Positions 1 through 53,487 of a stretch of 64,000 nucleotides of DNA are shown here, one piece after another. The stretch covers positions 1,982 through 65,981 of the forward strand of contig JBGQMY010000002.1 in NCBI GenBank assembly GCA_041500865.1, given 5' to 3'. Numbering within the stretch: the stretch's first letter is position 1; every line of letters begins with the position of its first letter. A program made the position numbers and the translations under genes. Source of the stretch: Candidatus Micrarchaeia archaeon. GTDB lineage: Archaea > Micrarchaeota > Micrarchaeia > Anstonellales > J096. Under the pieces are notes generated by a model. The model did no database searches, had not been told where the DNA came from, and saw only the letters and a list, made by a program, of their open reading frames with translations.

Positions 1-528
1 AAACCGGAAACGGAGGCAGGGAAAAGGCGCTCAGATGAAGGGGGAGAAAGATTCCTTGACAGCATGCTGCCGAAAGGCGAGACGCAGAAGCGGCTCAACA
101 GCCAGCTGCTGCTGGCAGCCCAGGACGGGCGCTATAATGAGATAAAAATCCTGCTTGAAACCGGCGCGGACGTGGAGGCAAGGAACCCCAGCGGCACGAC
201 CCCCCTGATTGTGGCGGTAAAGCATGGATATTCTGAAGTCTGCGCATTGCTGATTGGATGGAAGGCAAATGTCAATGCAAAGAGCAACAGCGGCGCGACT
301 GCGCTCATGCGGGCCGCATGGTTCGGACACACGAAAATCTGCGCGCTGCTGATAGAGAAAGGGGCGGATATTGGCGCAAGGGACACAGTTAATGGCTATA
401 TCGCTGCTGAAGCCGCTTTGAAGAGGGACACGGCCGCATTCCTCAAGTTCGCGGCATATGTTGATTCATCAATGGGCAAGGGCAGTTTCCGCATGTTTCT
501 GTCCGATGTCAGGGAGTGTGTCTCATGA
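1..528 (+). CDS. Ankyrin-repeat protein. The 5' end is probably upstream of the window. Member of the family with the conserved ..FLSDVRECVS tail.
   Basis: ANK consensus repeats (G.TPL..A...GH..v...Ll..GA). The frame is open from nt 1 with no stop. The upstream in-frame peptide KPETEAGKRLSDE matches the N-leader of the paralogs. The first ATG is at 64. Confidence 0.7.
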   Translation, partial: KPETEAGKRRSDEGGERFLDSMLPKGETQKRLNSQLLLAAQDGRYNEIKILLETGADVEARNPSGTTPLIVAVKHGYSEVCALLIGWKANVNAKSNSGATALMRAAWFGHTKICALLIEKGADIGARDTVNGYIAAEAALKRDTAAFLKFAAYVDSSMGKGSFRMFLSDVRECVS

Positions 529-557
529 ATCGGCTCCAAATAGGAAAAAAGGAGGCG

Positions 558-629
558 ATGCAAAAGCCAGACCTGTCCAACAAAAAGCCTGAACCTGAGG
601 CGGGAAAAAGGCTCGTTGATGAGAGCTAG
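558..629 (+). pseudogene. 23-aa remnant of an ankyrin-family N-terminal leader (MQKPDLSNKKPEPEAGKRLVDES*).
   Basis: The peptide matches the Lys-rich leader of the 52072 and 1579 paralogs and ends in TAG. A strong GGAGG sits 6 nt upstream. Confidence 0.35.
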
Positions 630-733
630 TGGCCTGGCGCATACATCACATTCGTGGCTTTTGCGCCAAATATTTTAGCGGACAAAAGAATATCCAATTC
701 ATTCTTTTCAATGTTCAAGGCATGCATCAGGAA

Positions 734-1492
734 CTAGCCGCTCGCCAGCTCAGTTATCATGTGGCCTTTCTTCCTTCCCAAATCCATGTACCTTACGCCC
801 AAGTCAAAGAAGAACACAAGGCTGGACCTTGTGCATATGACCTTGCCGTTTACGCAGTCCGACGGCTCGGCTGATTCAAAGGACTGGAGCGGGTTGTGGG
901 AAATGACCGGGTTTGCAACAAGGGCAGGGCCTGCGTAGTTGTCCCCCTTTATGTCTTCCATGCCTTTCCTCAATGCGCTGATGTTGTCCTTTTCAATCAG
1001 CTTGTCTGACGCGCTGGCGCTGTTGGCAAAGCCGTATGCCTTTTGCAGGTATTGCTCAATGCCATACGCCTCCTTCATTCCTCTCACGCGAGCCACTTCG
1101 GCATAATACCTTGCGCCCTGCTCATACGTCCTTATGCCTATCCTGTCTGCCCTCGTCACCCCGCACTTGACCTTGGAGCCGAAGACCGCAAGATAGACGG
1201 AATACTCAAAGTCCTTTATCTGCGCGAACTTCTCCTCGTAGCCGCGCTCGTCTGCGCAGGCGTACAGGTGGGTTATGTCCTTCCCCCTGCATGAGGGACA
1301 CTGGGAAACGCCAGGGGCCTGGTCCTCGCACCTGGAATACCTTTCCCCGTCAAAATAGCCCTTGCAGAACCTGTTTCCAGAAAAGCCCAAGTTCAGCTTC
1401 TTTCCGACGTTCAGTGTGAATGTGTCGACAGAGTCGCCTTCGCCCCAGTAGCTGAGCTCCCTCTTCAGGGCGTTGAACCCTATCATCTGCAT
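734..1492 (-). CDS. Hypothetical protein with a CPSC motif.
   Basis: Long ORF with no family recognised by eye. Confidence 0.45.
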   Translation of the reverse strand: MQMIGFNALKRELSYWGEGDSVDTFTLNVGKKLNLGFSGNRFCKGYFDGERYSRCEDQAPGVSQCPSCRGKDITHLYACADERGYEEKFAQIKDFEYSVYLAVFGSKVKCGVTRADRIGIRTYEQGARYYAEVARVRGMKEAYGIEQYLQKAYGFANSASASDKLIEKDNISALRKGMEDIKGDNYAGPALVANPVISHNPLQSFESAEPSDCVNGKVICTRSSLVFFFDLGVRYMDLGRKKGHMITELASG

Positions 1493-1578
1493 GGCCTTAG
1501 AGGGTCGGGAAGCATTTAAATACCGGAGCAGACCCCGTTGCCAACGCGTTTTTAACTTATTTGGCGCATAATTAAGCT

Positions 1579-2517
1579 ATGAAGCAGGAAGTGAAGCCGA
1601 TCCAAAAGAATGTGCCGGCAAAGAGACGGGTTAAACTCAAAGCAGACATCGCGCCAAGCGGGAAGCTGAAATTATCTGCAAAAAAGCAGGAGCGGCTTGA
1701 TGACAGGCTCGTTGAATCGGCAAGAGAAGGCAATATGGAAAATGTCAGGAGGCTGCTGAAGGCCGGCGCGGAGGTAAATTCAAGATACAACAGGAATACC
1801 GCGCTTATGAAAGCTGCACAATGGGGGCATGCGGAAATCTGCAGGCTGCTGATAAAGAGAGGCGTGGATGTAAACGCGCAGGACCATCATGGAGATACCG
1901 CGCTTATGAATGCCGCATGGGGCGGATACTCCGATATATGCAAGCTGCTGCTCGAAAATGGCGCAATTATGGCCATAAAGACATATGCGTATCACGGAAT
2001 CGAAGGCGAAAACGCGCTCCAGAGAGCGGCGAGAGGCATCGAATGGCACGACGACAAGGATGAGGCATGGCATTTCCTCAAGAACAGCGTCGATTTCGTG
2101 GCGGCTGCTTCAAAAGACAACATTGCGGAAATCAGGAGGCTGCTGAAGGCCGGCGCAGACATCGAGGCAAGGAACGAGTTTGGCTGGACGGCGCTAGTGC
2201 ATGCCGCAGCAGACGGGCGCAAAAACACATGCCTCCTGCTGATTGAGAATGGCGCAAACGTCAATGCAAGAGACGGCAACGGCAGAACCCCGCTGATGCA
2301 TGCGGCGCGCAACGGGCACACGGATATCTGCGCGCTGCTGATTGAGAATGGCGCAAAGGTCAAGTTAAAGGACAAGGCCGGCAACACCGCGCTCATGTGG
2401 GCCAAAGACCGCGGCAAAAAGGAGACTGCCGCATTCATTGTTACATCGTGGCTTTTCAAGGACATGGAAGCGTTCCGTCCGTTCTATTCCGCGTTCAGGG
2501 AATGCACAGGCGCTTGA
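1579..2517 (+). CDS. Ankyrin-repeat protein with Lys-rich N-leader and C-terminal tail ..FYSAFRECTGA.
   Basis: Several ANK repeats. TTTTTAACTT box 22 nt upstream of the ATG. Confidence 0.85.
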   Translation: MKQEVKPIQKNVPAKRRVKLKADIAPSGKLKLSAKKQERLDDRLVESAREGNMENVRRLLKAGAEVNSRYNRNTALMKAAQWGHAEICRLLIKRGVDVNAQDHHGDTALMNAAWGGYSDICKLLLENGAIMAIKTYAYHGIEGENALQRAARGIEWHDDKDEAWHFLKNSVDFVAAASKDNIAEIRRLLKAGADIEARNEFGWTALVHAAADGRKNTCLLLIENGANVNARDGNGRTPLMHAARNGHTDICALLIENGAKVKLKDKAGNTALMWAKDRGKKETAAFIVTSWLFKDMEAFRPFYSAFRECTGA

Positions 2518-2556
2518 CCGCAAGGGTTAAAACAAAGCGCTGCAAAAAGCCAAATC

Positions 2557-3390: not shown

Positions 3391-4352
3391 AGCGCCTCAA
3401 TGTACTTCCCTGCCTCATGGCCTGCTATGGCGCCTTCCGCAGCCGCGGTTATAGCCTGCTTGAACGGGCTGCCCCTTACGTCGCCTGCAACGTATATGCC
3501 AGGGGTCTTGGTCTCCATCCTATCGTTGGCAATTATGTAGCCGTTGGCATCCAGTTCCACAAGCCCCTTGAGCAGGCCGGAGTTCGGCTCCATGCCGATG
3601 TAAACGAAAACGCCGTCGCATGCGAAATCGGATGTTTTTCCTGTCTTGGCGTCCTTAAGCCTAATGCCAGTTAGTTTTTCACTGCCCAAAATCTCAATGA
3701 CCTCGGAATCCCAGATGAACGACATCCTTGGGTTTGCGAAGGCGCGTTCCTGTATAACCTTGTCAGCCTTGAGCGCATCCCTCCTGTGTATCAATGTAAC
3801 TTTTTCAGCGAACCTTGTGAGGTATATGGCCTCGTCAACCGCGGAGTTTCCGCCGCCTATCACTGCGACGCGCTTGCTCTTGAAGAACGGCGCGTCGCAG
3901 ACTGCGCAGAAGCTCACCCCCTTGGCAAAGAATTTGTCTTCGCCCGGGACATTGAGCCTCTTGTATGTTGCACCGGATGCGAATATGACCGCCTTTGCCG
4001 TATAAGTCGCTTTTGGCGTTTCAACCTCCTTTGTTTTGCCCTTGTCCCTTATGGCGGAAACCGGCTCGGCCATCCTTATCATGGCGCCGAACGATTCAGC
4101 CGCCTTTCCCATGGATTCTCCGAGACCCTCGCCGCTTATGCTGCCGATGCCTGGATAGTCCTCAACTGCGCCGGTTGTAGCTATCTGGCCGCCTGGCACT
4201 GCGCCCTTGTCAAGGACAAGCGTCTTTAGCTTTGCCCTTGCGGCATACAGCGCGGCAGACAGGCCCGCGGGCCCTGCGCCTATTATGATGACGTCCCAGC
4301 CTGAATCGGCCTTCTGCAACGACTTTGCGAACGACATGTCAAATGCTCCCAT
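3384..4352 (-). CDS. trxB: Thioredoxin-disulfide reductase.
   Basis: FAD motif IIIGAGPAGLSAALYAAR, redox-active CAVCDA, NAD(P) motif VAVIGGGNSAVDEA. Confidence 0.9.
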   Translation of the reverse strand: MGAFDMSFAKSLQKADSGWDVIIIGAGPAGLSAALYAARAKLKTLVLDKGAVPGGQIATTGAVEDYPGIGSISGEGLGESMGKAAESFGAMIRMAEPVSAIRDKGKTKEVETPKATYTAKAVIFASGATYKRLNVPGEDKFFAKGVSFCAVCDAPFFKSKRVAVIGGGNSAVDEAIYLTRFAEKVTLIHRRDALKADKVIQERAFANPRMSFIWDSEVIEILGSEKLTGIRLKDAKTGKTSDFACDGVFVYIGMEPNSGLLKGLVELDANGYIIANDRMETKTPGIYVAGDVRGSPFKQAITAAAEGAIAGHEAGKYIEALH

Positions 4353-4398
4353 GATGGGGATTTGCCTGGAAACCTTTTAAACTGTTGTCCGCTTCCTT

Positions 4399-5025
4399 TT
4401 GGGCATGGACGAGGCAATGGCCGTTTTCTGGAAGATAGCGGCGGTGCTGATTGCGCTTAACGCGGTTATCCTGCTGCCGCTTGTTGCCGTGCCGATGTAC
4501 GTTGACCATAAGACGATAGCGACCGCGGTCTTCATGCTTTATTCGCCCACGTGCCACCAGTACATCTCAAGGAGCTACTGCTTCTTCGAGTCAAACGCAA
4601 GCTGGGGCTTCGGGGACTGCATAATCAACGGGTCGCACCCCCTGGTCATAACCGAATTCACGCCTTCAAAGATGAACTACAGCGGGGCTTTCGTTTTCAG
4701 CAGGGGCGAGATAGGCGTCAACAGGGCCGACGTTGTCTTTTACGATGACAGGATAGGGTTCAAGATGCCTGTCTGCGCAAGGGACTTCGGCATTTACCTG
4801 GGCTCCTTGCTCGGCATGGCGGCTTTCCTGCTTTTCAGGGACAGGATTAGGCCCATGGGCCTGCCTGTGTATATACTGTTCCTTGTGCCCTTGGTTATTG
4901 ACGGGTTCATGCAGCTCCTTACCGGCTATGAGTCAACCAACATGATAAGGCTTGTTACGGGATTAATTGCAGGCGGCGCGTCAGGGGTGGCGCTGCTCAG
5001 CATCATTTATCCAAGAAAGAAATAG
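4399..5025 (+). CDS. DUF2085-like polytopic membrane protein.
   Basis: CHQ...RSY motif typical of DUF2085 and several TM helices. TTTTAAAC box 20-27 nt upstream. Confidence 0.5.
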   Translation: MGMDEAMAVFWKIAAVLIALNAVILLPLVAVPMYVDHKTIATAVFMLYSPTCHQYISRSYCFFESNASWGFGDCIINGSHPLVITEFTPSKMNYSGAFVFSRGEIGVNRADVVFYDDRIGFKMPVCARDFGIYLGSLLGMAAFLLFRDRIRPMGLPVYILFLVPLVIDGFMQLLTGYESTNMIRLVTGLIAGGASGVALLSIIYPRKK

Positions 5026-5749
5026 CGCCAATGCACCCGCGGAAGTCTGAAAGGAACGGTTTTATGTTTTCTACTTCAATTATGTCTCCCAGCAGTTCGA
5101 TTGATTTTAGGAACTGCGCGGTTTGGATGCGCCCTTTGTTTTCGGCGTATTGCAAAGCCGTCCTTTTGCAATTGTCATTTATTGCAATCAGTTCCTTTGC
5201 GTTTCCGCCGGCTTTTGCGTATTCTTCTATCAGCAGGAGGCAGGCTTGGGTGTGCCCGTAGAATGCGGCGAGGTGCAGGGCAGTATAGCCTTCATTGTCC
5301 TTTGCGATTATGAGGTCCTTTGCATCCCCGCCGGCTTTTGCGTATTCCCTTATGAGCAGTTCGCAGGTTTCAATGTGCCCCTTCATTGCGGCCCAGTGCA
5401 GGGCTGTGTTGCCGTTTTTCTCCTTTGCGGCGATGAACTTATTTATGTTTCGGCCTGATTTTGTGTATTTTTCTATAATCAGGATGCAGGTTTCGGTGTG
5501 TCCGTAGCTTGCGGCATTATGCAAGGCAGTCCAACCATAACTATCCTTTGCGGCGATGCTTGCGCCGGTTTTTATGAGCCTCAATATCTTTGAGTTTTCG
5601 CCATCAGATGCGGCTTTGATGAGCAGATTGTCAAGCCTTCTTCCAATAAACAGCCTCTTTATCGGCTGCGCAGCCGATATCAGTACCTCTCTTGTGCGCT
5701 CCCAATGTCTTTGGGGTTTGTTTGCCTGCTGCTCTTGGCGCTGTGCCAT
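5003..5749 (-). CDS. Ankyrin-repeat protein. The likely start is MAQRQEQQANKPQ. C-terminus is ..FLSDFRGCIGAISFLDK.
   Basis: ANK repeats. The track start at 5767 is further upstream. The ATG at 5749 follows a TTTTAAAC box and a TTTGCCGCACAATA element shared with the 37867 paralog. Confidence 0.8.
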   Translation of the reverse strand: MAQRQEQQANKPQRHWERTREVLISAAQPIKRLFIGRRLDNLLIKAASDGENSKILRLIKTGASIAAKDSYGWTALHNAASYGHTETCILIIEKYTKSGRNINKFIAAKEKNGNTALHWAAMKGHIETCELLIREYAKAGGDAKDLIIAKDNEGYTALHLAAFYGHTQACLLLIEEYAKAGGNAKELIAINDNCKRTALQYAENKGRIQTAQFLKSIELLGDIIEVENIKPFLSDFRGCIGAISFLDK

Positions 5750-5769
5750 GCTGTTATTGTGCGGCAAAC

Positions 5770-5781
5770 GGTTTAAAACTT
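5770..5781. promoter_or_regulatory. Shared divergent TATA-like element (GGTTTAAAACTT) between the ankyrin gene (minus) and the malic enzyme gene (plus).
   Basis: A single TTTAAAA core lies 22-28 nt from both the ATG at 5749 (minus) and the ATG at 5800 (plus). Confidence 0.45.
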
Positions 5782-10275: not shown

Positions 10276-11196
10276 CTACAGCTCCACCTTCAGGCCGTCA
10301 TAGCCAAGCAAAACGTTTCCCTTGAAGCGCTTCCTTGCCTCGTCCTCAAGCGCCTTTTCCCTGCCCTTGGCGTACCTTGGGCTTATGTGCGTCAGTATGA
10401 GCGTCTTTGCGCCTGACTTTGCGGCAAGCGCTGCCGCGTCCAATGATGTCGAGTGCCCCTTCCTGTGCGCATCCTTTTCCATGCCTGCGGAAAACGTGCA
10501 CTCGTGTATTATTGCGTCGCAGCCCTTTGCCAGCTTTTCCATGCCAGGGAACGGCGCAGTATCCCCGGTATAAAGGACCTTCAGGCCCTTTGTTTTGTAC
10601 GTAACTTCAGCGAGCCTTATCGTTTTTCCATTGATTATAAGCTTGCCCTTTTCCATTATCTCTGTGAACATCGGCCCTTTCAGCCCCATTGATTTTGCCT
10701 TTTTCTCGTTGAAGCGCACGCGCTCGTTTTCCTCAAACAGGAATCCGTAGCTGTCCTGCCTATGTTTCACTTTGAACGCGCTTATCGTGAAATCGCCGCC
10801 CTTGAGCAGCACGCCTTCCTTTATCGTTTTTACTTTTATGAAATCGGACTTTCTGGACATGATGTCCTCAAAGCCCTTTGGCGCGAAAATGCTGAACGTG
10901 TCGCCTTTTTCAATGGGCGATGCATGGCCTTCCGGGTAGCCGTAAAGCCCGAGCAGCCTCATGGTCTCAAGATAGCCGTAAAGCCCGAGGAAGTGGTCCA
11001 TGTGCAAATGAGTTATGAAGACATGGCGTATGCTGCCGAAGCCCAGCCTGTGCCTCATCAGCTCCCGCTGCGAGCCCTCGCCCATGTCCCAAAGGAACGG
11101 GAAGCCCTTCCAACTGAGGAAGATGCACGGCATCCCCCTTTCAGGGCTGGGCATGCCTGCGGACGTGCCTATTAATTGGATTGACATGCGTGCCAT
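10276..11196 (-). CDS. rnz: Ribonuclease Z (tRNA 3' endonuclease), short form.
   Basis: HxHxDH motif ITHLHMDHFLGL, N-terminal LIGTSAGMPSPERG, C-terminal LILTHISPRY. Confidence 0.85.
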   Translation of the reverse strand: MARMSIQLIGTSAGMPSPERGMPCIFLSWKGFPFLWDMGEGSQRELMRHRLGFGSIRHVFITHLHMDHFLGLYGYLETMRLLGLYGYPEGHASPIEKGDTFSIFAPKGFEDIMSRKSDFIKVKTIKEGVLLKGGDFTISAFKVKHRQDSYGFLFEENERVRFNEKKAKSMGLKGPMFTEIMEKGKLIINGKTIRLAEVTYKTKGLKVLYTGDTAPFPGMEKLAKGCDAIIHECTFSAGMEKDAHRKGHSTSLDAAALAAKSGAKTLILTHISPRYAKGREKALEDEARKRFKGNVLLGYDGLKVEL

Positions 11197-11308
11197 TGCC
11201 GCCTTATTGCATGTGACGGTTTAAAAATGGCGTTCCCTTGCCGGATGGCGCATCCGTCGGAATCACATATGCTTTTTAACCTTATCTTTCAAATCAAACC
11301 GTGGTAAC

Positions 11309-12397
11309 ATGCAGGAACTCATAAATTCGGTGCTCAGCGAGAACAGGGCGAGGACTCCGGAAGAGATTGCGCCGGCATCCTCCCAGGCAGGAAACCCTGC
11401 GGTAAATCTCGACGAGGTTCTAAGGAAGGTCAGGATAACCGTCATAGGCGTCGGGGGAGCCGGATGCAACGCCGTAACGAGGCTGTTCCTTTCAGGCATA
11501 GAGAGCGCAAGGACGATAGTCATAAACACCGATTCAAAGCACCTGCACACGATATCAAAGGCGCATGAGAAGTACCTGTTGGGCAAGACCATGACAAGGG
11601 GCATAGGCGCAGGCGGCGACGCCGGTGTCGGAAGGCGGTGCGCGGAGGCAGACGCAGAGGACCTGCGAAAGCTGATAGGCGAAAATGAGATAGTCTTCAT
11701 CGCCGCGGGCATGGGCGGCGGAACCGGGGCAGGCGCGTCTCCTGTAATAGCAAGGATAGCAAAGGAACAGGGAGCCATGGTCATAGGCATAGTGACGTTC
11801 CCGTTCAAGCTGGAGCGCATAAGGGTAAAGAAGGCGCAGGACCATATCAGGGATTTGCTGAAGGAAGTTGACACATTAATCGTGATTGACAACAACAAGC
11901 TGGCGGAATTCGCCCCTAACCTTCCGCTGGACGCGGCGTTCAAGCTCGCGGACAGCATCATGGCAAGGGCGGTCAAGGGCCTTACGGACAGCATAATGCT
12001 GCCCTCGCTGATGAACATAGACTATGCAGACGTAAGAAGCGTCCTGAAAAACAAGGGCATAGCCATGATATCGCTCGGAGAGGGAAACGGCGCCAACAGG
12101 GTGCAGGATGCCATAAAGAACACGCTCTCGCACCCGCTGCTTGAAGTAAACTACGAGGACGCCAAGGGCGCGATAGTGCACATAGAGGGAAGCGAAGGGC
12201 TGACGCTCGGGGAGGCCATAACGATAGGGAACGAGATAACCAAGAGCTTCGACCCTGAAGCGGAAGTCAAGATGGGCGCAAGGATAAACCAGTCCTTGGA
12301 CGACACCATAATAGTGACTGCGATAATCACCGGCGTAAAGTCGCCGTCCATACTCGCAAAGGAAGGGGGAGGCAGCGAGACGCCGCTGGTGCTTTGA
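11309..12397 (+). CDS. ftsZ: Cell division GTPase FtsZ (tubulin/FtsZ family).
   Basis: GVGGAGCNAV and the tubulin signature GMGGGTGAGASPVIA. Confidence 0.85.
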   Translation: MQELINSVLSENRARTPEEIAPASSQAGNPAVNLDEVLRKVRITVIGVGGAGCNAVTRLFLSGIESARTIVINTDSKHLHTISKAHEKYLLGKTMTRGIGAGGDAGVGRRCAEADAEDLRKLIGENEIVFIAAGMGGGTGAGASPVIARIAKEQGAMVIGIVTFPFKLERIRVKKAQDHIRDLLKEVDTLIVIDNNKLAEFAPNLPLDAAFKLADSIMARAVKGLTDSIMLPSLMNIDYADVRSVLKNKGIAMISLGEGNGANRVQDAIKNTLSHPLLEVNYEDAKGAIVHIEGSEGLTLGEAITIGNEITKSFDPEAEVKMGARINQSLDDTIIVTAIITGVKSPSILAKEGGGSETPLVL

Positions 12398-16566: not shown

Positions 16567-16690
16567 GTAGGGATGGCGGAGCCCGGTCAAACGTGCCAGA
16601 CTCAAGGCGGAAAAAGACAAGGCGTAAATAAAGACACGTGAGACATCTGGTGCCCTAGCGGCTACGTGGGTTCAAATCCCACTCCCTACA
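16567..16690 (+). tRNA. tRNA-Leu(CAA), class II, with a 38-nt intron at the canonical 37/38 position (16607..16644).
   Basis: Acceptor GTAGGGA/TCCCTAC. Anticodon stem CCAGA/TCTGG is restored after removing the intron. Loop CTCAAG with CAA at 16603-16605. Long variable arm. T-arm GTGGG-TTCAAAT-CCCAC. Discriminator A. TTTTTTAACC box about 22 nt upstream. CCA is not encoded. Confidence 0.75.
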
Positions 16691-16970: not shown

Positions 16971-19900
16971 TTAGCCCTTTGGCTTTTTCGGCTCTCTTGC
17001 GGCCACCCGTTTGTTGTAATCATCTATGACTTTTTGCTTGGTTTCGCGCAATGCCGCCTTTCTGGCTTCTTCATCAGCACTTTTCTGCATTTGTGATGCC
17101 GTTTCAGGCGCCTGTCCCAACGCCTGCTGTTCGGATTGCTTTGATGGCGGCTTTTCTGGGCCGCCTTCTTTGAAGACGACCCCGGTCTCTTTCTCTTGAG
17201 GCCGCTTTTCAGCGGGCGGCGGCTCTGCGGGAGGCGTTGGCCGCCCGCCAGGCCCGGATGGGGGCAGTTCTCCATAAAGCATCGGCGCCGGCCTCCCCCT
17301 CCCCCCAAAATATGTGTCATACGTATCAAGCGCGCCCGTGGTGACCTTGCCAATGAAATTATGATAATCCTCCAATGCCGCATAATCTGCCTTGGTGCCA
17401 TTCTTATCCTTAATCCCATCGTCAGATAATTCCTTGGAATATTCCTCTTTCGCACCAATTGCGAAATAATTGCGCAGGCAATCCTTATCATAGTCTTTGC
17501 TGATGAACGCCCTATGGAAAGTCTCATCCGAAGCTCCGGTCATGATGTCTGCAGCCGGGCTTGAATTTGCGATGTTCTCCAGCAGTCCGCTAAAATCAAA
17601 AAAAGACGCCGAAGTGAGATTTCTCCTGTTTCTTGTCTCATAAATGCGGTTTTTCATATCATCTTCAGTTACCTTGATAAGGTTCTTCTTTTCATCCTCA
17701 TAAAGATCAGAGACTACGAAGGAAAGCGACGAAAGCGCCAACGCCCCGGAAGGCGCGCCGCTGACTCCCCCGCCGCCTGCCGGCTTCGGGAACTGCCCCT
17801 GCTGCTCCAGCGCGCTCTTCATTATACTGGATTCATCCGCAGAAAGCTTGTCGAGATTGAACTGCTTCAGGATTTTATTTTCCCTGTCGTCCGGGATGGC
17901 AGTGCCATTCTTGTCGACCAGGTCAAACTTCTTTTGGTCAGGACTAAAGACAAGGAAGACATTTTCCCTGCCCTCATCCAGCTGGAACTTCTCCAACTTC
18001 TCATAAAGCTCCTTATGGGATTTCAGGTTATCCGTAGACGCCTTGGAAGTTAGCATGCCTTCCATTGAATCAAAAAGCTGCGCGACGACACCGGCTCTTG
18101 ATTCGACTCTTGATTCTGCCCCCCCGACCCGGGCGGACATGGCATCCCTAACATCCTGATATGGAATTACATCATTGGAACTGAAATAAGGCAGCACTTT
18201 TTCCTTTATGCTGTTCTTGGATGTCTCGTTGAATGCAGCATATATCTTCGTGAAACTCTCTGATGCATCTTTCATATTAAGCTCTGCCTTCACATCATTC
18301 CCTGTTATGCGCTCCCCGGAAGAATTGTTGATCTTAGTCCCTCCCTCATCTATGCCATTGAATACGAGGTCGGTGCCTCTGAGGCTATCCTTAATCGCGC
18401 CTACGTTTACATTTCTAAATTTGTCCAGTTCTGTGATAAGCTGGGATCTGTCATTTTCACCCATAGACTTGGTTGCGTCCTCAAGGGAAACTGCCTTGCC
18501 AGTTGCCTTGTCTCTCACCAAGAAATTGCCTTCAGAATCCGCTCCTGAGAATGAATAACCTGCCACGGCAGTGCCGAATATTGTATTTATATTTTTAAAG
18601 GTATCTGTTCCCAATGCTGAGGACGCTTTGGAGAAATCCGCCCATGAGTCCTCGTTCATCCTAGCCTTTGCCTGGTCCATGGTTAGCTTCTCTTTGCTTA
18701 CTTTGTCAACTATGACAATATCGCCATTCCTCCCATTGAAACCTTCCAGCGCCATGCCGTTCCTGTCCAATACATCGGCAAGCTTTCCCATAGGGACGAT
18801 TTGGGCTGCGGCAGCTCCTGCTTCAAGGTCTTTTTGATGCGCTATGCCGAGCGCTTTTTCAATTATGCCGGATGATGCCTGGATTGCCTCAGTCCTCTTC
18901 AGCGCCAAGTTCTCTGCTGTAAAGCTGCTCTCAGGCTTCGCGCCATTTGCCATGTCTGTTAGGGTTATCATAGAATAGGCATTGTTCTCAATGCCGTATT
19001 CCGATATTACCTTGTCTTTATTTTCACCGCTGATTTCCTTGCCATTCTTGGTTATTTTTATTTTATCGGATATTTCCATTCCGCTGGCGCCGGGAACCGC
19101 CGTTATGGTGTAGCCGTCATTTACCATGCCCAAAAGGCCGTTGACAACCTGCAGCTTTGCGCTGTTCGCGCTAACGTCTGTCCTTAGTTCCCTCTCCATT
19201 TTCAGCTGCTCAACCATATATGTTGCATTGGCCTGGTTGACATATTCAGGATGATCCGGGAACATTGCTTTCAGCACATTCTGCGGGGCATTGGCGTCTG
19301 TCCCAATCGCATTGAAATCCAACAAAAGCTTGTCGGCTCTGTCTTCCTCGCCGCTCAAGCGCAGCGACAGTGCTATCGCTGCCACTTTGTTTCCTATGGA
19401 ATTCTGGGCTATCTGGCTTATCTTAACTTGGAATTCTCTTTCCGGCTGCAGGATATTGCCCTCAAGATAATGCACCGGCAAATGCGATTCCCTCATCAGC
19501 TCCATCTGGTCATTCAGCATGGTGCCGTAGGCTATCTTCATGCCTATGAAATCCGAAAGCTGGTCCTTAAGTTTCTCGTCCTTAATGCCGCTTAGCCTGT
19601 TGTCCTTGCCGCTTTGGAGGTCTTTCATCTCTGAAAGCGTGAGGGAATCCTTGCTGAGCGCGGCAAAAAGGGCCTTGGCGGTGCCGGAGAGGCCCTCGTT
19701 CTGCTCTATCCTGGATTTCAAGGATGATATGTCATCCCAAAGCTTCGTCATCCCTTGCTTGTTTTCAGCTACTTTCTTGTCTGTCGCAGGGAAGCATTTC
19801 AGGACAAAGCCCGGCATCACGGAATCCCTTTCCTTGATTAGCTTCTCGTTCTCCTTTTCGAGCTTTTTTATGTCCTTGTTTGACGGATTGTTTTCCCTAA

Positions 19901-21470: not shown

Positions 21471-21629
21471 GGTTCGCTTTTGCCTGGCCTTGTTTTTAAA
21501 CATAGCGCCTAAGGAAACCGAGGTTCCCTTGAAGCATTTTTCCAAAAGGCTTCAGCGAAAAACGTTGGCCCAACCCCCCCTTCTTACTAAGCTGTTGCAT
21601 CTGGGGTATTTTTGCCAAACCACAAGATT

Positions 21630-22589
21630 TCAGCTTGCTTTTCCAAGCGCATAAAGCCTTTCCAGCCTTTTTACGGTAAGCGGATGCGTCATAAGCAGTT
21701 CACTAAGCCCGCCCTTGCCCTTCTCCTTTTCCAGTATTTCGGCAAAGGACGAACCGCGCCCCAGCATCAGCGCAATCTCGTTTATGGTCCCGCGCTCATT
21801 TGCTGAAGGCGAGGCTATGTAGAAGGAGTTCATGCTTTTGTTCTGGGCCTGCGCCTGCGGGGCCGCGTTCGCGTAGCTTATCCTTGTCAGCGCCATCATC
21901 AGCGCCTTCGGGTTTGCGGTCGCATAGGCGGAGAACTCGTCCGCATAATACTCCCTTGTCCTTGATATGGCAAGCACTATGAGCTGGCCCAAAAAGCTTG
22001 CCACGTTCGCGCCTATTATCGTGGCCAGGAACGAACTCTGGCCGTTGTTGTCCTTTCCGCCGAAGAAGATGATGAAGGCATAATAAAGCAGTATGGGAAG
22101 CGCGCCGGCAAACGTCATCACAAGCACGTCCCTGTGCCTTATGTGGCCCATCTCATGGGCGATTACAGCCTCAATCTCGTCCGGGCCGAGCATCCTCAAA
22201 AGGCCGGTATGCACGGCTATGGCAGAGCTGGACTGCGTCCTGCCGAAGGCAAAGGCGTTCGGATAGGGGTTGTCAACCAGGTACAGTTTCGGCACAGGCA
22301 CGCCCGCAATGCCGGCATACTTCGCCAGTATCGCCCTTATCTCAGGCAATTCGCCTTCCTTCACTTCCTTTGCCTTAGTGGACCATTTTATTATCCAAGG
22401 CCCTATGTACCATTGGACAAGGAGGAATGCGAACGAGATTATAATCCAGACTAGTATCGAGCCGCTGCCCGAGAATCCCGCATAGACCAGTATGAGGCCC
22501 AAAACGGATGCGACTATGCCGAAGACCAGCATGGTGACAAGCATCATCCTGAGCGTAAGCCCGAACGTACTGTATTGTGTGGATGCCAT
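21630..22589 (-). CDS. htpX: HtpX-like M48 zinc metalloprotease (membrane).
   Basis: HEMGHIRHRD zincin motif and four TM segments. The track start at 22640 would overlap the giant gene. The ATG at 22589 has its own TTTTAAAAT box and a GGAGAG near -8. Confidence 0.8.
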   Translation of the reverse strand: MASTQYSTFGLTLRMMLVTMLVFGIVASVLGLILVYAGFSGSGSILVWIIISFAFLLVQWYIGPWIIKWSTKAKEVKEGELPEIRAILAKYAGIAGVPVPKLYLVDNPYPNAFAFGRTQSSSAIAVHTGLLRMLGPDEIEAVIAHEMGHIRHRDVLVMTFAGALPILLYYAFIIFFGGKDNNGQSSFLATIIGANVASFLGQLIVLAISRTREYYADEFSAYATANPKALMMALTRISYANAAPQAQAQNKSMNSFYIASPSANERGTINEIALMLGRGSSFAEILEKEKGKGGLSELLMTHPLTVKRLERLYALGKAS

Positions 22590-22636
22590 GGTTATCTCTC
22601 CTTGCCTGGATTTTAAAAATGAAATGGTTGAAAAAA

Positions 22637-35827: not shown

Positions 35828-35848
35828 GGATGGGCTTTGGCTGCGCGC

Positions 35849-35873
35849 CTTTTTAAACATTAATGACGTTGGG
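35849..35873 (-). promoter_or_regulatory. Promoter of the giant gene. The TTTAAAAAG TATA element (minus sense) is 24-30 nt upstream of the ATG at 35827. The block is conserved with 37342-37363.
   Basis: Plus-strand CTTTTTAAACATTAATGACGTTG is 22/23 identical to the block upstream of the 458-aa gene. Confidence 0.6.
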
Positions 35874-37399: not shown

Positions 37400-37867
37400 T
37401 CATCCGGCAACGCACTCGCTGAAGGATACTATGAATGAGTTGGATGCTTCCTTTCTCATCAGATCATACAGTAATGGCATGGATTCTAGGATATTTCTGA
37501 TTTTGTCGTGCCTTGATTGCGAGGCCATGCTTAATGGGGTCCAGCCGTCATTGTTCTTTGCCTCGATGCTTGCTCCTTTTCCGAGCAGCAAGGCGCAGGT
37601 TTGGGTGTGTCCGTTCCTTGCGGCATGCATGAGCGGAGTCATGCCGCTGCCGCCTTTTGCCTCTATGCTTGCGCCAAGCTTCAGCAGCGTTTCAATGCCT
37701 GTATTGTCGCCGCTCTCTGCGGATTCCAGCAGTTCATTGTTGAGCCGCCTTTGCCCTTCTGCCGATAATGCCGGATTCTTCAATGCCGGCTTTTCGCTGG
37801 GCATGATGTCTGCTTTCAATTTAACTGGTTCTGTTGCCGGATTGTTTTGGAGCGTCTTTTCCTGCAT
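37400..37867 (-). CDS. Ankyrin-repeat protein. Likely start MQEKTLQNNP. C-terminal tail ..FIVSFSECVAG.
   Basis: ANK repeats. The track start at 38020 is upstream. The ATG at 37867 is preceded by TTTGCCGCACAATA (shared with the 5749 paralog) and a TTTTTAATT box. Confidence 0.75.
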   Translation of the reverse strand: MQEKTLQNNPATEPVKLKADIMPSEKPALKNPALSAEGQRRLNNELLESAESGDNTGIETLLKLGASIEAKGGSGMTPLMHAARNGHTQTCALLLGKGASIEAKNNDGWTPLSMASQSRHDKIRNILESMPLLYDLMRKEASNSFIVSFSECVAG

Positions 37868-38090
37868 GTATCTATTGTGCGGCAAAGCAATTAAAAACAG
37901 CGCGCAGCGCCCTAAATGCCTTCTTTTGAACCCAAGGGCCTTTTCTTTCCCCAAGTGCTTTCTTTTTCCAATGCGCATCAGCGCCAAAAGCAGGGGGGCG
38001 GGAGGAGCTTGGAACTGCACAGTTTCGTGGGCCGTCTTTTATGCCAAAGGCAAAACAATGTGGGTATTGCCTGCTGGCCCACGACACTGT

Positions 38091-43399: not shown

Positions 43400-44900
43400 A
43401 TTCTTTTAATGGTTTTTATATCATTTAAAAGGGCAAGGTTTATAAAGTGACATCCTCCCAGCACTCTCTAAAGTGCTTGGGTTCCAGCCTCTATTTCAAG
43501 GCGTTTAGTTCCTGCTTCAGCGAAATGTCTTGCAGTTTCATTGCAGAAACCACAGAGGGCATATCTCCACAGGCGTGACTTTCCGCCAGTCCGGCGGTAG
43601 CTCGCTTGAGTATGTTCATTGCCGCGTTCACGTCCCTGTCCTCTGAATATCCGCAATTGAGGCATTTATATGTCCTTACCCCCAATGGCATCTCCTGGAC
43701 GTGCCCGCACTTATTGCATTCCCTTGACGTATTCTCTGGATTCACCTCTATTAGCTCGCAACCAGCGCTTCGAGCCTTGTATGCGAGCATTCCCCTGTAC
43801 GTGCTCCAGCCTGCGTCCGATATCGACTTCGCAAGGCAATGGTTCTTCACCATGTTCTTGACCTTTAGTTTTTCGACCGCTATCTTTCCGTATGAGTTGA
43901 CCTGCTTCCTTGAAAGCTTGTGAAGAAAGTCAAACTTCTGGTTGACGATTCTCTCTTCCAATCTCGCTTTTCTCCGTCTTGCTCTTCTTCTGTTCCTGCT
44001 GTTTGGCTTTTTTCTTGAGACCCTGCGGCTAAGCAGTTTGAGCCTTTTCTCTGATTTCCTTAAGAACTTAGGAGGATTTATCTTTTCGCCATTTGAAAGG
44101 GTTGCGAAACTTGTCAAACCAACGTCTATGCCTATCGCTTCCTTGTTATTGCTTTCAAACGCCTTTTCAGGCACTTCGTTTGAGAATCCGACATACCACT
44201 TTCTTGATGGATACTGTTTTATGACGCATGTTTTTATCGTGCCTTTCGGCGGTCTGTGCATAACGATTGGTATGTTTCCTATGTTTGAGAGATGAAGCCT
44301 TTTGCTGTTTTTGAACTTGAATCCTGACTGGGGATATGTTAGAGAACATGCATGCTTCTTTATCCTTGGAAATCCGACCTTTATCCTTTTTCCTGCTTTC
44401 TTCCCTTTAACGCGCCTGAAGAACGCCTTGTACGAGTCTCCCAACCTCTTTGATACATTCTGTGCTACTTGGGAATAAAGTTCCTGGAATTGCGGCTGCT
44501 CCCTCTTTAACTGTATGATATGCTTGTTCATATCAATCTCCGAAAGCGTTTTCCCTGTTTCCTTGTAATACGACTTTGACTTTTCAAAAAGTAGGTTATA
44601 CAGTTCCTTTGCCAGCTGCATCTGCCTGTTTAAGCGGAAAACCTGTTTCCCAGACGGATATATTCTATACTTATATCCTAGCATGCTTGCATCTTTCTGG
44701 CCTCGTTTATAAACGTGGGCAGACCTTATTGCCAGAACCCTATTTGTGCACTTTTCATCCCGCTTTTGGAAGGCATAGACATTCTTAGTGTACCGAAAAA
44801 CCGAGTTTTGTTGTGACAATGACGATAAGTCAATTCATTCCCGGGTTAAAACCCAGGAATTTCTTGTCCAGCATGTTTAAAAATATTTCTCTCTAACTTC
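43400..44900 (-). mobile_element. Solo IS200/IS605-family (IS1341/ISC-type) element carrying only tnpB. The ends are approximate.
   Basis: tnpB ORF with no tnpA (Y1 transposase) nearby. Hairpins at both flanks (43457-43481 and 44833-44861). Inserted between tbp and rpl21e. Confidence 0.5.
43491..44684 (-). CDS. tnpB: TnpB (OrfB) RNA-guided nuclease/transposase accessory protein of the IS200/IS605 family.
   Basis: N-terminal YKYRIYPSGKQ, RuvC-like core, C-terminal zinc finger CNKCGHVQEMPLGVRTYKCLNCGYSEDRDVNAAMNI. The track start at 44819 is a TTG. The first ATG (MLGYKYRIYP) is at 44684. Confidence 0.85.
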   Translation of the reverse strand: MLGYKYRIYPSGKQVFRLNRQMQLAKELYNLLFEKSKSYYKETGKTLSEIDMNKHIIQLKREQPQFQELYSQVAQNVSKRLGDSYKAFFRRVKGKKAGKRIKVGFPRIKKHACSLTYPQSGFKFKNSKRLHLSNIGNIPIVMHRPPKGTIKTCVIKQYPSRKWYVGFSNEVPEKAFESNNKEAIGIDVGLTSFATLSNGEKINPPKFLRKSEKRLKLLSRRVSRKKPNSRNRRRARRRKARLEERIVNQKFDFLHKLSRKQVNSYGKIAVEKLKVKNMVKNHCLAKSISDAGWSTYRGMLAYKARSAGCELIEVNPENTSRECNKCGHVQEMPLGVRTYKCLNCGYSEDRDVNAAMNILKRATAGLAESHACGDMPSVVSAMKLQDISLKQELNALK

Positions 44901-46081: not shown

Positions 46082-46112
46082 TTTTTAAACACTTATTCAC
46101 ACAGTAAGCGCA
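46053..46112 (+). repeat. Copy 1 of a roughly 60-bp direct repeat (3' end of the DUF655 gene plus the TTTTTAAACA promoter plus the ankyrin ATG).
   Basis: GTGACGCAGCCGCCGAAGGAAGCAATCTGATTTTTAAACACTTATTCACACAGTAAGCGCATGG. Confidence 0.8.
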
Positions 46113-46732
46113 TGGTCCAAAAAGAAATGCCAGAAAAGGGGAAACTGGTTTTAGGCGCAAGTAAAAAGCCCGCCGCGAAGGCAGGAAAACCGGCTTACAA
46201 AGCGGATATCCTGCCAAGCGGAAAAATGGCGTTATCCAAGAAAGAGCAGAAACGGTTCGATGACAATCTCCGGAATGCCGTCATATATGAAAACGTTTTT
46301 GGTGTATTGCGGTTCATCAAGTCAGGCGCAGACATGAATGCAGGGGACGACTGTGGCCTGACGGCGCTCATGCTCGCCGCATCCAAAGGAAACGCCCAAA
46401 TCTGCAAACTGCTGGTTAAGAAGGGCGCGGATGTTGACGTGAGGGACAACACAAACCGGACGGCGCTCATGGTTGCCGCACAGCGGAAGCATGCCGACAT
46501 CTGCAGGCTGCTGGTTGAAAATGGCGCTGAGGTGCTGGCAAGGGACTGGCATGAAAGAACTGTGCTGCATTATGCTGCAGCAGGAAGGCTAAGCGGCATA
46601 TGCACGCTGCTGATCAAGAAAGGCGCGGACGTGAATGCAACGGACAGGGATAAGAGGACCGCGCTCGATATCGCCCTAGAATCCGGCCACACGGAAATCG
46701 CCGACCTTCTGCAAAAGAAGATGAAAAAGTGA
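46112..46732 (+). CDS. Ankyrin-repeat protein with Lys-rich leader and no C-terminal FREC tail.
   Basis: ANK repeats. TTTTTAAACA box 28 nt upstream. Confidence 0.8.
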   Translation: MVQKEMPEKGKLVLGASKKPAAKAGKPAYKADILPSGKMALSKKEQKRFDDNLRNAVIYENVFGVLRFIKSGADMNAGDDCGLTALMLAASKGNAQICKLLVKKGADVDVRDNTNRTALMVAAQRKHADICRLLVENGAEVLARDWHERTVLHYAAAGRLSGICTLLIKKGADVNATDRDKRTALDIALESGHTEIADLLQKKMKK

Positions 46733-46812
46733 GGCATATGCAGAGACTGCGGCGTACCTCAAGTCCTTGGAAACCAAGAAAGAATAGAAATGTCCGTTTT
46801 CAGGACATTTGT

Positions 46813-46872
46813 GACGCAGCCGCCGAAGGAAGCAATCTGATTTTTAAACACTTCTTCACACACTAGGCGCAT
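46813..46872 (+). repeat. Copy 2 of the roughly 60-bp direct repeat. It carries a relic of the last 10 codons of the DUF655 gene together with the promoter.
   Basis: TGTGACGCAGCCGCCGAAGGAAGCAATCTGATTTTTAAACACTTCTTCACACACTAGGCGCATGG, about 57/60 identical to 46053-46112. Confidence 0.8.
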
Positions 46873-47290
46873 GGCTCAGGAAACAAGGACGGCAAAAAAG
46901 AAACTGCTTTCATGCGCAAAGAAACCGGCGCATGAATTAGCGACAGAAGGGGCAAGGAAGACGCTCAGCGCGGATATGCAGGCACGGATAGAAAAATTGC
47001 TTGTTGGGCTGGTCGCACAGGGAGATAAGGACGAGCTGACTAATCAGATAGCAAGGCTGGAAAAGGCAGGCGTTGACGTAAAGCAGATAATAAACGCAAG
47101 CGACACGGACGGCAGGACTGCGCTGATGCATGCCGCAGCAGAGGGCCGTACCGAAACATGCAAACTGCTCATAAGCAAAGGCGCCGACATAAACAAAGGG
47201 GACAGTTTTGGCTGGACCGCGTCCATGGTTGCCGGACATTACGGGCGTAAGGAAACTGAGGCATACCTCAAGTCCGTTGAATCCAAGTAA
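46871..47290 (+). CDS. Short ankyrin-repeat protein (tandem paralog).
   Basis: ANK repeats DGRTALMHAAAEGRTETCKLLISKGADIN. Confidence 0.8.
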   Translation: MAQETRTAKKKLLSCAKKPAHELATEGARKTLSADMQARIEKLLVGLVAQGDKDELTNQIARLEKAGVDVKQIINASDTDGRTALMHAAAEGRTETCKLLISKGADINKGDSFGWTASMVAGHYGRKETEAYLKSVESK

Positions 47291-51996: not shown

Positions 51997-52071
51997 TGCA
52001 TGGGTATCCCTGGATAGGCTTAAAACGGTTGCGCAACGGCTTTTTTAACCTCTTTTGTCCATAATGGAGGC

Positions 52072-52824
52072 ATGGCGCAAAGGCTCAGAGAGTCTAAGAT
52101 TAAAAAAGCAGCCAAACGGCCAGACCTGGCCAGCAAAAAGCTGCCGACTGAGGAAAGGAAGCCCAGCCAAAAGGAGCAGAATCGGCTTGATGCCAATCTC
52201 TTGATAGCGGCCGCGAATGGCTTGCTAGATGATGCCAGGAGGATGCTGAAGGCTGGGGCGAATATAGAGGCAAGGGACAAGAACGGATGGACCGCGCTTA
52301 TGTATGCTGCACAGCATGGGCACACCAAAACCTGCAAGCTGCTGCTTGAAAAGGGCGCAGGAATCAAAGTGCAGGAGCGGCTTGATGCCCGCCTCCTGAA
52401 AGCGGCAGGGGAAGGCAGGACAGGAAAAGTCGGAAGGCTTCTGAAGAAAGGCGCAAGCATCGAGGCGGGGGACAGCATCGGCTGGACCCCGCTCATGATG
52501 GCCGCGTATGGGAACAACATGGAAACCTGCGCGCTGCTGGTTGAAAAGGGCGCGGACGTCAACGCAAAAAGCAGGGAAAGCTGGAATGCGCTCATGCTGG
52601 CCGCGTGTTGGGGATATACGGAAATCTGCGCCTTCCTGCTGGAAAAGGGCGCAGACGTGAATGCAAGCGACTATGATGGCAAAACCCCGCTAATAGTTGC
52701 AAGGGAAAACGGAAAAACAGAAACAGCCGAACTCCTGAAGATTTATTCGATGGCAAAGATAATGGACAGGGAAACGGCGGTTACGTTCATTTCCAGCTTC
52801 CGCGAGTGCATAGGTGGTGCCTGA
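52072..52824 (+). CDS. Ankyrin-repeat protein with Lys-rich leader MAQRLRESKIKK.. and tail ..FISSFRECIGGA.
   Basis: 5-6 ANK repeats. GGAGG lies 3 nt before the ATG. Confidence 0.85.
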   Translation: MAQRLRESKIKKAAKRPDLASKKLPTEERKPSQKEQNRLDANLLIAAANGLLDDARRMLKAGANIEARDKNGWTALMYAAQHGHTKTCKLLLEKGAGIKVQERLDARLLKAAGEGRTGKVGRLLKKGASIEAGDSIGWTPLMMAAYGNNMETCALLVEKGADVNAKSRESWNALMLAACWGYTEICAFLLEKGADVNASDYDGKTPLIVARENGKTETAELLKIYSMAKIMDRETAVTFISSFRECIGGA

Positions 52825-53487
52825 ATGGCGCAAAAGCTCAGGGAGCCAAAAATCATCCATAAGATAAGGGAATTCTTCCATAAGCCTGAGCCTGACAATT
52901 CGGCAACGCTGCAGGAGCGGCTCAATGCCGACCTTTTGAAGGCTGCCGCAGGAGGCCAGACAAAGGAGGTTGAAACGCTGCTGGAAAAAGGCGCAGAATG
53001 GTGGGCGACGAGCGAAAGCGGCTTTACCGCGCTGATGTTTGCAGCAGGCAGGGGCCACGCAAGGGTCTGCGGGCTCCTGGTTGAACATGGCGCAAGCATT
53101 GACTCAAGGGCATTGAACGGCTCAACCCCGCTGATGCTTGCAGCAGGGAACGGGAAGTCGGAAACCTGCGCCTTGCTCATTGAAAAAGGCGCTGCCGTGA
53201 ACGCAGTCAACGAGGACAGCAGCAACGGCTGGACAGCGCTGCATTGGGCGGCAATCAACGGGCACACCAAGGCATGCGCAGTCCTGGTTGCAAAAGGGGC
53301 CAAGATAATGGGGGAAAATGGCTTGCATGAGATTCCTGAACTTTTGGCTGAGAGGCAGGACAAAAGGGAGACGGCCGCGTTCCTCAGGCCCATCAGGGAG
53401 ATGTGGTACTCGGCCGGCAACCTGGACGGCGCAAACGGCTTTGCCATATCCATATCGTTTTTCGGCAAATGCATCAAGGCGGCATAA
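52825..53487 (+). CDS. Ankyrin-repeat protein with tail variant ..FFGKCIKAA. The ATG overlaps the upstream stop (TGAATG), so the two are likely cotranscribed.
   Basis: ANK repeats. MAQKLREPKI leader. Confidence 0.8.
   Translation: MAQKLREPKIIHKIREFFHKPEPDNSATLQERLNADLLKAAAGGQTKEVETLLEKGAEWWATSESGFTALMFAAGRGHARVCGLLVEHGASIDSRALNGSTPLMLAAGNGKSETCALLIEKGAAVNAVNEDSSNGWTALHWAAINGHTKACAVLVAKGAKIMGENGLHEIPELLAERQDKRETAAFLRPIREMWYSAGNLDGANGFAISISFFGKCIKAA

Follow-up and report, generated by a model that had tools for sequence, protein, structure and literature searches.

What does an invariant cysteine do at the very end of a family of archaeal ankyrin-repeat proteins, and why do members of this family share both of their termini while differing in between? 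The question is posed by a 64,000-nucleotide (nt) stretch of contig JBGQMY010000002.1 (hereafter, the window), across which ankyrin (ANK) genes are dispersed that encode a Lys-rich N-terminal leader and, in most copies, a C-terminal tail containing a single Cys. An earlier examination of the bare sequence (hereafter, the original prediction) took the conserved termini for a shared targeting, export or lipidation signal, with a CaaX-like cysteine near the end. The observation itself is confirmed here, and its functional interpretation is partly supported. The reading that we favour, to which we would give about even chances, is that these proteins form a repertoire of soluble, diversified ANK binders, whose C-terminal alpha-hairpin would serve as a cap and/or docking element, the Cys being part of the hydrophobic contact face of the hairpin and not a site of lipidation.

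Members of the family, in the window and beyond

All eight open reading frames (ORFs) that the original prediction had listed as ankyrin genes match Pfam Ank_2 and pass the Pfam cut-offs (E from 1.5e-11 to 2.7e-54). Their summed lengths (5,139 of the 64,000 nt) amount to ~8% of the window. These genes and a decayed ninth copy are as follows (protein lengths in amino acids, aa).

ank1, 1..528 (+): family member with the 5' end cut by the window start; Pfam Ank match; tail hidden Markov model (HMM) score of 48.3 bits; tail codons 418-525 read ...DTAAFLKFAAYVDSSMGKGSFRMFLSDVRECVS, with 2 residues after the Cys
Decayed ninth copy, 525..737 (+): directly after ank1; leader (MNRLQIGKKEAMQKPDLSNKKPEPEAGKRLVDES), in-frame TGA at 627-629, tail ..FVAFAPNILADKRISNSFFSMFKACIRN and a stop (ending ..FFSMFKACIRN and the stop)
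ank2, 1579..2517 (+): 312 aa; leader motif VKLKADIAPSGK; tail ..FYSAFRECTGA, with 3 residues after the Cys; TTTTTAA box at 1549-1555
ank3, 5003..5749 (−): 248 aa; tail ..FLSDFRGCIGAISFLDK, whose nine residues past the Cys make it the outlier of the family; TTTTAAA box at 5772-5778
ank4, 37400..37867 (−): 155 aa; leader motif VKLKADIMPSEKPAL; tail ..FIVSFSECVAG, with 3 residues after the Cys; TTTTTAA box at 37891-37897
ank5, 46112..46732 (+): 206 aa; tail-less sub-family; TTTTTAA box at 46082-46088
ank6, 46871..47290 (+): 139 aa; tail-less sub-family; ends ..KETEAYLKSVESK; TTTTTAA box at 46841-46847
ank7, 52072..52824 (+): 250 aa, a mosaic; tail ..FISSFRECIGGA, with 4 residues after the Cys; TTTTTAA box at 52042-52048
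ank8, 52825..53487 (+): 220 aa; begins directly at the ank7 stop; no separate box; tail ..ISISFFGKCIKAA, with 4 residues after the Cys

Translations, alignment and HMM all confirm that six of the eight copies share a conserved Cys-containing tail. The six carriers (ank1 to ank4, ank7 and ank8) end in the common pattern ...ETAAFL..(15-20 aa)..F-[LMI]-x-S-F-x-[ED]-C-[IVLTA]-small-small-COOH, and the alignment of their tails contains just two invariant columns, one of which is the Cys. The two remaining genes, ank5 and ank6, stop directly after the last repeat and represent a sub-family with the ending ...ETAAFLKSMES(K/R), which is also found in related genomes. Just past the stop of ank5 (46733-46790, plus strand), its former C-terminus, AETAAYLKSLETKKE followed by a stop, persists in another frame (that of 46692); thus, judging from the reading frames, a frameshift appears to have truncated ank5, and AETAAYLKSLETKKE appears to be the ancestral C-terminus of the tail-less sub-family. 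Frame translations of the decayed copy show that all ANK repeats are gone and that the tail resembles those of proteins P0047, P0148 and P0192.

The Lys-rich leader is real as well. Its consensus begins with MAQ(R/K)L.ES.. or MQE(R/K)KPLQ.., runs through a basic stretch to K(A)DI(L/A)PSEKPALS.EEQKRLN and then enters the N-cap. The first 40 residues, rich in Lys and Arg, carry on average a net charge of ~+5, compared to ~0 for the remainder of the protein. No hydrophobic signal, and no Sec or Tat signal, was detected by analysis of the N-terminal sequences of the family. Among the 3,997 six-frame ORFs of at least 30 aa in the window and related loci (~190 kb), the tail and leader HMMs match ORFs of the ANK family only, with the sole exception of a 94-aa leader-only ORF in the related locus L011. 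Similarly, when the six frames of the window were scanned with a loose motif, the tail was found on no non-ANK ORF.

The original prediction proposed to scan the genome and metagenomes with an HMM of the C-terminal 40 aa; a search of protein clusters with a tail profile shows that the tail is conserved far beyond this genome, in 77 cluster representatives. A 36-position profile, constructed from 14 tails, was scored against 1.84 billion (1.84e9) protein cluster representatives at E <=1e-3 and yielded 78 matches, of which 77 are short proteins (41-312 aa) with the match at the C-terminus or a few residues from it; the other one, P0161 (767 aa), was rejected as a false match. When 67 full-length members were scanned against Pfam, 66 matched Ank_2, the only non-ANK match was a weak one to Shigella_OspC in one member, and no other domain recurred. 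Searching with the full-length ank7 protein gave results dominated by generic ANK proteins, from which the family members were picked by their tail.

In the three syntenic relatives, L011 (JGI 3300027896), L013 (GCA_041500405.1) and L008 (GCA_041478675.1), family genes lie at the same places and the Cys is kept. Four ANK genes precede the Rad50-like gene of L011, two follow the gene for family-B DNA polymerase (PolB) and one follows the dCMP deaminase gene; the pattern in L013 is as in L011, and 20 kb of L008 hold seven ANK genes, between which a Fic gene lies. With regard to the surroundings of the L008 array, the Fic-domain gene and a gene for a DUF87/HerA-VirB4-like ATPase (10648-11565 and 4054-5634, respectively) are ~5 kb apart, and the latter adjoins the gene for a weak CdvB_HTH protein.

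Retention of the Cys, which the original prediction left to be checked in orthologues, was observed in orthologues and in 97/97 distinct tails of the family. The tails of ank7 and its orthologue read ..FISSFRECIGGA vs ..FLSVFNECIGGV, those of ank8 and its orthologue read ..ISISFFGKCIKAA vs ..FISSFGKCLAT, and those of ank1 and P0083 read ..FLSDVRECVS vs ..FLSDFRECIES. Overall identity is 61% between ank1 and P0083, 73% between ank6 and its orthologue L011_2645, and 78% between ank8 and its orthologue L011_9477, with 53% in the tail of the latter pair, where F, F and C are retained. Among the proteins recovered by the tail profile, P0139 is identical to ank2, and a protein identical to ank7 is encoded on the NCBI MAG contig JBGOZM010000002.1 (GCA_041480205.1; 93.7 kb) and on a JGI contig.

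Tandem arrays of the family occur on metagenome contigs, six members in L015 (214-4058) and five in L016 (63-3013), over ~4 kb each. The metagenome contig scan returned three loci only, and no tail-bearing gene was found in the viral contig scan. Genome contigs scanned with ank7 yielded nothing but ANK genes of unrelated bacteria. One array member from L015/L016 ends in ..FDICT, with a single residue past the Cys.

The family appears to be undescribed, its leader and tail being represented in no library model (Pfam, NCBIfam, PDB). Tail segments gave no Pfam match at E <=10 except for a chance match to GIP1_N (E = 0.23), the tail profile found nothing below E = 0.9 among PDB sequences, and the leader alone gave chance-level matches only in Pfam and PDB. 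With ank7, NCBIfam produced repeat-level matches only, far below cut-off. A literature search for ankyrin together with DPANN archaea or Micrarchaeota brought up seven papers, all with passing mentions only, and none on this family.

The C-terminal tail, the repeat core and the history of the genes

The composition of the tail was assessed on 97 distinct tails (the first 87 for position −6 and 96 for position +2, relative to the Cys). The Cys is invariant (97/97), F occupies positions −7 and −3 in 94/97 and 93/97 tails, respectively, L, M, I or Y is found at position −6 in 84 of the 87 tails, and E or D precedes the Cys directly in 83/97. Position +1 is I, V, T, L or A in all 97, position +2 (a2) is S, A or G in 75/96 (78%), and A, G, Q and S predominate at the very end of the chain. 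The number of residues after the Cys is 1 (1 tail), 2 (20 tails), 3 (63), 4 (6), 5 (6) or 9 (1). The conserved hydrophobic positions −10, −7, −6, −3, 0 (the Cys) and +1 follow one another with the spacing 3-1-3-3-1, i.e. they form a single face of an alpha-helix, and by this periodicity the Cys belongs to the hydrophobic stripe of the tail helix.

Structure prediction with AlphaFold2 gives a compatible picture. For ank7 (67-sequence alignment), the mean predicted local distance difference test (pLDDT) score is 91, and two helices are predicted at the end of the 250-residue chain, 216-231 and 233-248, with pLDDT of 85-95; the first is the extended helix 2 of the last repeat, and the second holds the F..SF.EC motif. 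The final three 10-residue blocks score 95, 91 and 85, and the Cys, residue 246 of 250, is predicted to lie inside helix 233-248 (pLDDT ~85-91). For ank4, with a 13-sequence alignment, the ANK core scores >90, residues 1-30 are predicted to be disordered and a long helix spans 121-139. The ANK solenoid is supported by the paired helices of these models, with core pLDDT >90, and by the best Foldseek matches in the PDB, which are designed ankyrin repeat proteins (DARPins; E ~1e-12). DARPins were all that this search returned, and it was uninformative on the tail.

The possibility that the tail is simply a standard terminal capping repeat was raised by the original prediction as an alternative. 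This is correct for the 'ETAAF' half, which forms the second helix of the final ANK repeat, and incorrect for the helix after it, which alone is extra. A degenerate additional ANK repeat was rejected as the origin of this helix: with the Cys placed in register with core position 18, none of T4, L6, A9, A10 and G13 aligns. A membrane-seeking amphipathic helix was rejected as well. The hydrophobic moment (0.46) and mean hydrophobicity (0.19) of the terminal helix are in the 'globular' range, below the surface-seeking boundary, which is that of the Eisenberg plot.

For the repeats, an HMM iterated on the family extracted 315 matches, 104 of them near full length. The framework positions L6, A9, C18, L21 and A26 have entropies of <=0.5 bits (L6 in 101/104, A9 in 98/104, L21 in 102/104 and A26 in 98/104), so that their conservation is about at the level of the tail motif. 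The most variable positions are 3, 8, 11 and 12 (3.3-3.9 bits), of which 3, 11 and 12 correspond to the target-contact positions randomised in DARPins. The number of repeats per protein ranges from 1 to 7. Accordingly, the 'variable repeat core' of the original prediction stands with respect to repeat number and binding-surface positions but not with respect to the framework, which is approximately as conserved as the tail. Conserved termini carried by one gene family, with a core that varies in length and surface, are supported.

At the buried position 18 of helix 2 ('TCALL'), 99/104 family repeats (95%) have Cys. The ank7 search also brought up 113 unrelated ANK proteins, and in their 455 repeats this position is Cys in 4% and Val in 55%. 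Cys as a hydrophobic core residue is, therefore, a hallmark of this family, and this habit of the repeats weakens the case for the tail Cys being chemically special. In successive repeats, the Cys residues at position 18 form a ladder along the solenoid.

Conservation of the tail does not exceed that of the core in orthologous pairs: the values are 53% for the tail vs 83% for the core in ank8, where the tail contains an indel, and 69% vs 64% for ank1 and P0083. Recombination between paralogues is apparent in ank7, a mosaic in which the N-terminal part of L011_8395 is matched by residues 1-93 (29/40 identities in the leader) and L011_7846 by residues 99-250, starting with a second N-cap (~99-125). 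The two paralogues are separate genes in L011 (7846-8394 and 8395-8937).

Six genes have a TTTT(T/A)AA box upstream of the ATG, at −30..−24 in five and at −29..−23 in the sixth. A box at such a distance is the arrangement of archaeal leaderless genes, and its fixed position relative to the ATG implies, on sequence grounds, that the family genes are individually promoted and leaderless, with promoters that would have been duplicated along with the genes; the ~60 nt upstream of ank5 and ank6 are nearly identical. Because ank8 starts where ank7 stops and has no box of its own, it is probably co-transcribed with ank7.

Readings of the termini and of the invariant cysteine

Each protein is built of three parts. 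The leader, a Lys/Arg-rich segment of ~45 aa that is predicted to be disordered, leads through its ..PSEKPALS.EEQKRLN motif to the N-cap; the 1-7 ANK repeats combine a strongly conserved framework with hypervariable positions at the canonical target-binding sites; and, in most members, the final repeat has a predicted extension of its helix 2 (ETAAFLKSME.L), which a short turn (GKE) connects to a predicted amphipathic helix of 13-16 residues at the end of the chain. Under the reading that we favour, the resulting hairpin would represent a family-specific C-terminal cap or docking module, and the invariant Cys would be a residue of its packing or contact face. Such proteins, of ~140-310 aa, make up a lineage-specific, heavily duplicated family that would have originated by tandem duplication, gain and loss of repeats, and recombination between paralogues. 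The binders might act like adaptors or effectors, with the variable ANK groove choosing the target, and the leader and the hairpin might supply a function common to all members, e.g. stability or one shared partner. Arrays of ANK copies, a hypervariable surface and recombination between paralogues are the pattern of effector or adaptor repertoires in bacterial symbionts and large viruses; a role as a binder repertoire, like any link to a host, may be surmised for this family.

The best functional analogy is with the ANK-SOCS-box proteins (ASB) of animals and the ANK/PRANC F-box-like proteins of poxviruses, which likewise join a variable ANK module to a constant helical C-terminal motif of ~35-40 aa in a multi-copy family that diversifies rapidly. 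However, the sequences are unrelated, the family tail has no Pfam match to SOCS_box, PRANC or F-box, these motifs comprise three helices compared to two in the family tail, and Archaea lack the Elongin/Cullin or SCF partners. The ANK expansions of Wolbachia, Rickettsiales and sponge symbionts, together with DARPins, resemble the family in the many paralogues, the varying repeat number, the hypervariability at DARPin positions and the structural matches to DARPins. In contrast to these, the carrier here is a DPANN archaeon, and the family has a leader, a 'TCALL' repeat framework with its core Cys and a C-terminal hairpin of its own, none of which is represented in Pfam, NCBIfam or the PDB. ANK expansion in host-associated microbes is as such a known theme. 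To our knowledge, very few candidate host-interaction proteins of DPANN archaea are known, and this family would be a candidate host-interaction repertoire of such an archaeon. The tail profile provides a searchable marker of the family, and its members are small, soluble and easy to express.

Several points weigh against a repertoire of soluble binders with a packed terminal hairpin. The packing of the last helix and the burial of the Cys are read from just the pLDDT and the periodicity, and in the ank4 model, with its 13-sequence alignment, the terminal helix 144-154 has a pLDDT of only ~55. The Cys is invariant in all 97 tails, whereas other positions of the stripe accept I, L, M, V or Y; if its role were purely one of packing, an occasional A, S or V would be expected in its place. 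Furthermore, the exact C-x-x-x-COOH spacing is present in 65% of the tails, the ANK fold can do without the hairpin, as is evident from the tail-less sub-family, and the putative repertoire has no known partner, target or host.

Among the alternatives, a translocation signal, whereby the basic leader and/or the C-terminal hairpin would direct the ANK proteins from the symbiont into a host cell, is in our view unlikely. Such a signal would be comparable to those at the termini of ANK effectors secreted by type IV systems. It would agree with a DPANN-like genome that encodes giant surface proteins (a subtilase/Big_13/RCC1 protein of 4,407 aa) and with the ANK expansion as such, which is typical of host-associated microbes. 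Both termini are common to the paralogues while the binding surfaces diverge, the leader is predicted to be disordered, and the HerA/VirB4-like DUF87 ATPase is encoded ~5 kb from the ANK array in L008. Nevertheless, neither in the window nor in the syntenic loci is the family linked to a secretion apparatus, its genes lie among housekeeping genes, and Sec and Tat signals are absent from the proteins. Most secretion signals are a matter of composition, unlike the invariant F..SF.EC motif, and the tail-less sub-family retains a related leader. A translocation signal also leaves the invariance of the Cys unexplained.

We regard as decidedly improbable that the near-terminal Cys is a CaaX-like site of S-lipidation, i.e. 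that it is prenylated or otherwise lipidated by the machinery of the archaeon or of a host and anchors the ANK protein to a membrane. Several observations favour such a role. The Cys is invariant, the residue at +1 is always I, V, T, L or A, and the chain mostly ends in A, G, Q or S, with endings such as CIAA, CVAA, CVSS and CASQ; A, S and Q are X residues of the farnesyltransferase type. The spacing C-x-x-x-COOH is found in 63/97 tails (65%), and archaeal homologues of Rce1 exist that have no known physiological substrate (Haft, bioRxiv 10.1101/2023.06.07.544157).

However, 1, 2, 4, 5 or 9 residues follow the Cys in the other 35% of the tails (34/97), the distance from the Cys to the end differs even between orthologues (CIKAA vs CLAT), and residue a2, which is A, S or G in 78%, is small, which is atypical of a CaaX motif. 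A flexible, accessible peptide would be expected at a lipidated terminus, whereas the tail Cys is within a confidently predicted helix, on its hydrophobic stripe, and is preceded by a conserved motif of 8 residues that CaaX enzymes do not need. Cys in the repeat core is already a habit of the family, and the tail occurs on ANK family proteins only, which is unexpected for a sorting signal. Neither the 64-kb window nor ~100 kb of related loci yielded a gene for a prenyltransferase, Rce1/CPBP or ICMT, and the synthesis of isoprenoid lipids is commonly absent from DPANN archaea. Thus, given the spacing, the small a2, the helix, the core-Cys habit and the restriction to ANK carriers, the CaaX-like lipidation, targeting or export signal of the original prediction is poorly supported.

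Comparison with systems in which a C-terminal Cys is known to be modified or to take part in sorting is in keeping with this assessment. AnkB of Legionella pneumophila and other host-prenylated CaaX effectors share with the family the ANK interaction module, the host-associated microbe and the near-terminal Cys with an aliphatic residue after it; the differences are the spacing of 1-9 residues, the small a2, the position of the Cys in a conserved predicted helix, the archaeal carrier and the lack of visible prenylation machinery. The NCBIfam models of the Dot/Icm proteins AnkY, AnkH and AnkG reach 60-74 bits, compared to cut-offs of 500-600, and match the repeats only; genes of a type IV secretion system (T4SS) were not found in the 64-kb window. 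The MYXO-CTERM and CGP-CTERM sorting signals are likewise short C-terminal motifs with an invariant Cys that occur on many proteins of one lineage. In these, the Cys motif is followed by a transmembrane helix and an Arg/basic cluster, and the carriers are otherwise unrelated proteins (Haft, bioRxiv 10.1101/2023.06.07.544157), which are presumably exported, as their role in surface attachment suggests. The family tail, in contrast, has 1-5 residues after the Cys (9 in ank3), comes without a signal peptide and is confined to ANK proteins.

We attach very little probability to the tail being a true modification or targeting signal, in which the Cys would be S-lipidated (with an isoprenoid or another lipid) or otherwise covalently processed and the family would consist of effectors delivered to, or anchored at, the host membrane interface; if true, natural CaaX-like substrates would for the first time be known from Archaea, and would offer a molecular handle on the manipulation of hosts by DPANN symbionts. 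A lineage-specific modifying enzyme might be encoded outside the loci covered here, in the rest of the genome or by a host. A reactive cysteine, i.e. a terminal Cys that, with the preceding Glu or Asp, provides an intermolecular disulfide, a metal bridge or a redox switch and so dimerises the protein or links it to a partner, can claim the invariance of the Cys, the E or D before it in 83/97 tails and the accessibility of the chain end if the helix frays, but is very improbable: a reducing cytoplasm is the expected location because the proteins have no export signal, the motif contains a single Cys with no CxxC or His partners, and this Cys is in register with hydrophobic residues.

Organism and genomic surroundings

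By sequence, the window is chromosomal DNA of an uncultured, probably symbiotic archaeon with a small genome, which we treat as a deep-branching member of the DPANN archaea, probably of the Micrarchaeota. The closest relatives of the archaeal release factor 1 (aRF1, eRF1) encoded in the window show 69-88% identity, and the next-best ones (52-59%) include entries named Candidatus Micrarchaeota, Micrarchaeia, Anstonellales and Bilamarchaeaceae. Besides aRF1, the archaeal housekeeping genes of the window include those for AglB/STT3, RIO1 kinase, a KH/Pno1-like protein, tRNase Z, FtsZ and HisG; TBP, L21e, PolB and a Rad50/arcadin-like ATPase are also encoded. A phage or plasmid origin of the ANK genes was rejected on account of their synteny among housekeeping genes in three related genomes.

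Other features of the window are the following.

16567-16690 (+): tRNA gene of 124 nt (Rfam, 44 bits), missed by ARAGORN
16971-21545 (−): ORF of 1,524 aa with no Pfam match
21630-22640 (−): M48 peptidase, HtpX-type, following the giant ORF on the same strand
22637-35860 (−): giant ORF of 4,407 aa with subtilase S8, Big_13 and RCC1 repeats and a weak Por_Secre_tail match

Giant surface proteins are typical of DPANN-type episymbionts. The ORFs of 4,407 aa and 1,524 aa fit this pattern, and the latter may encode another large surface protein. A similar giant S8 protein is encoded at the syntenic place in L013. The M48 peptidase was considered as a Ste24-type CaaX protease and rejected in this capacity, being of the HtpX type instead. 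Since the tRNA gene was found by Rfam and missed by ARAGORN, it presumably contains an intron; the CAA in its anticodon region indicates that it may be a tRNA-Leu gene. Mobile and defence genes are interspersed with the housekeeping genes at 43491-44819 (−), 60646-61862 (−) and 62841-63734 (−), namely, TnpB/OrfB_IS605, an AbiEi/AbiEii pair and a second AbiEii toxin gene.

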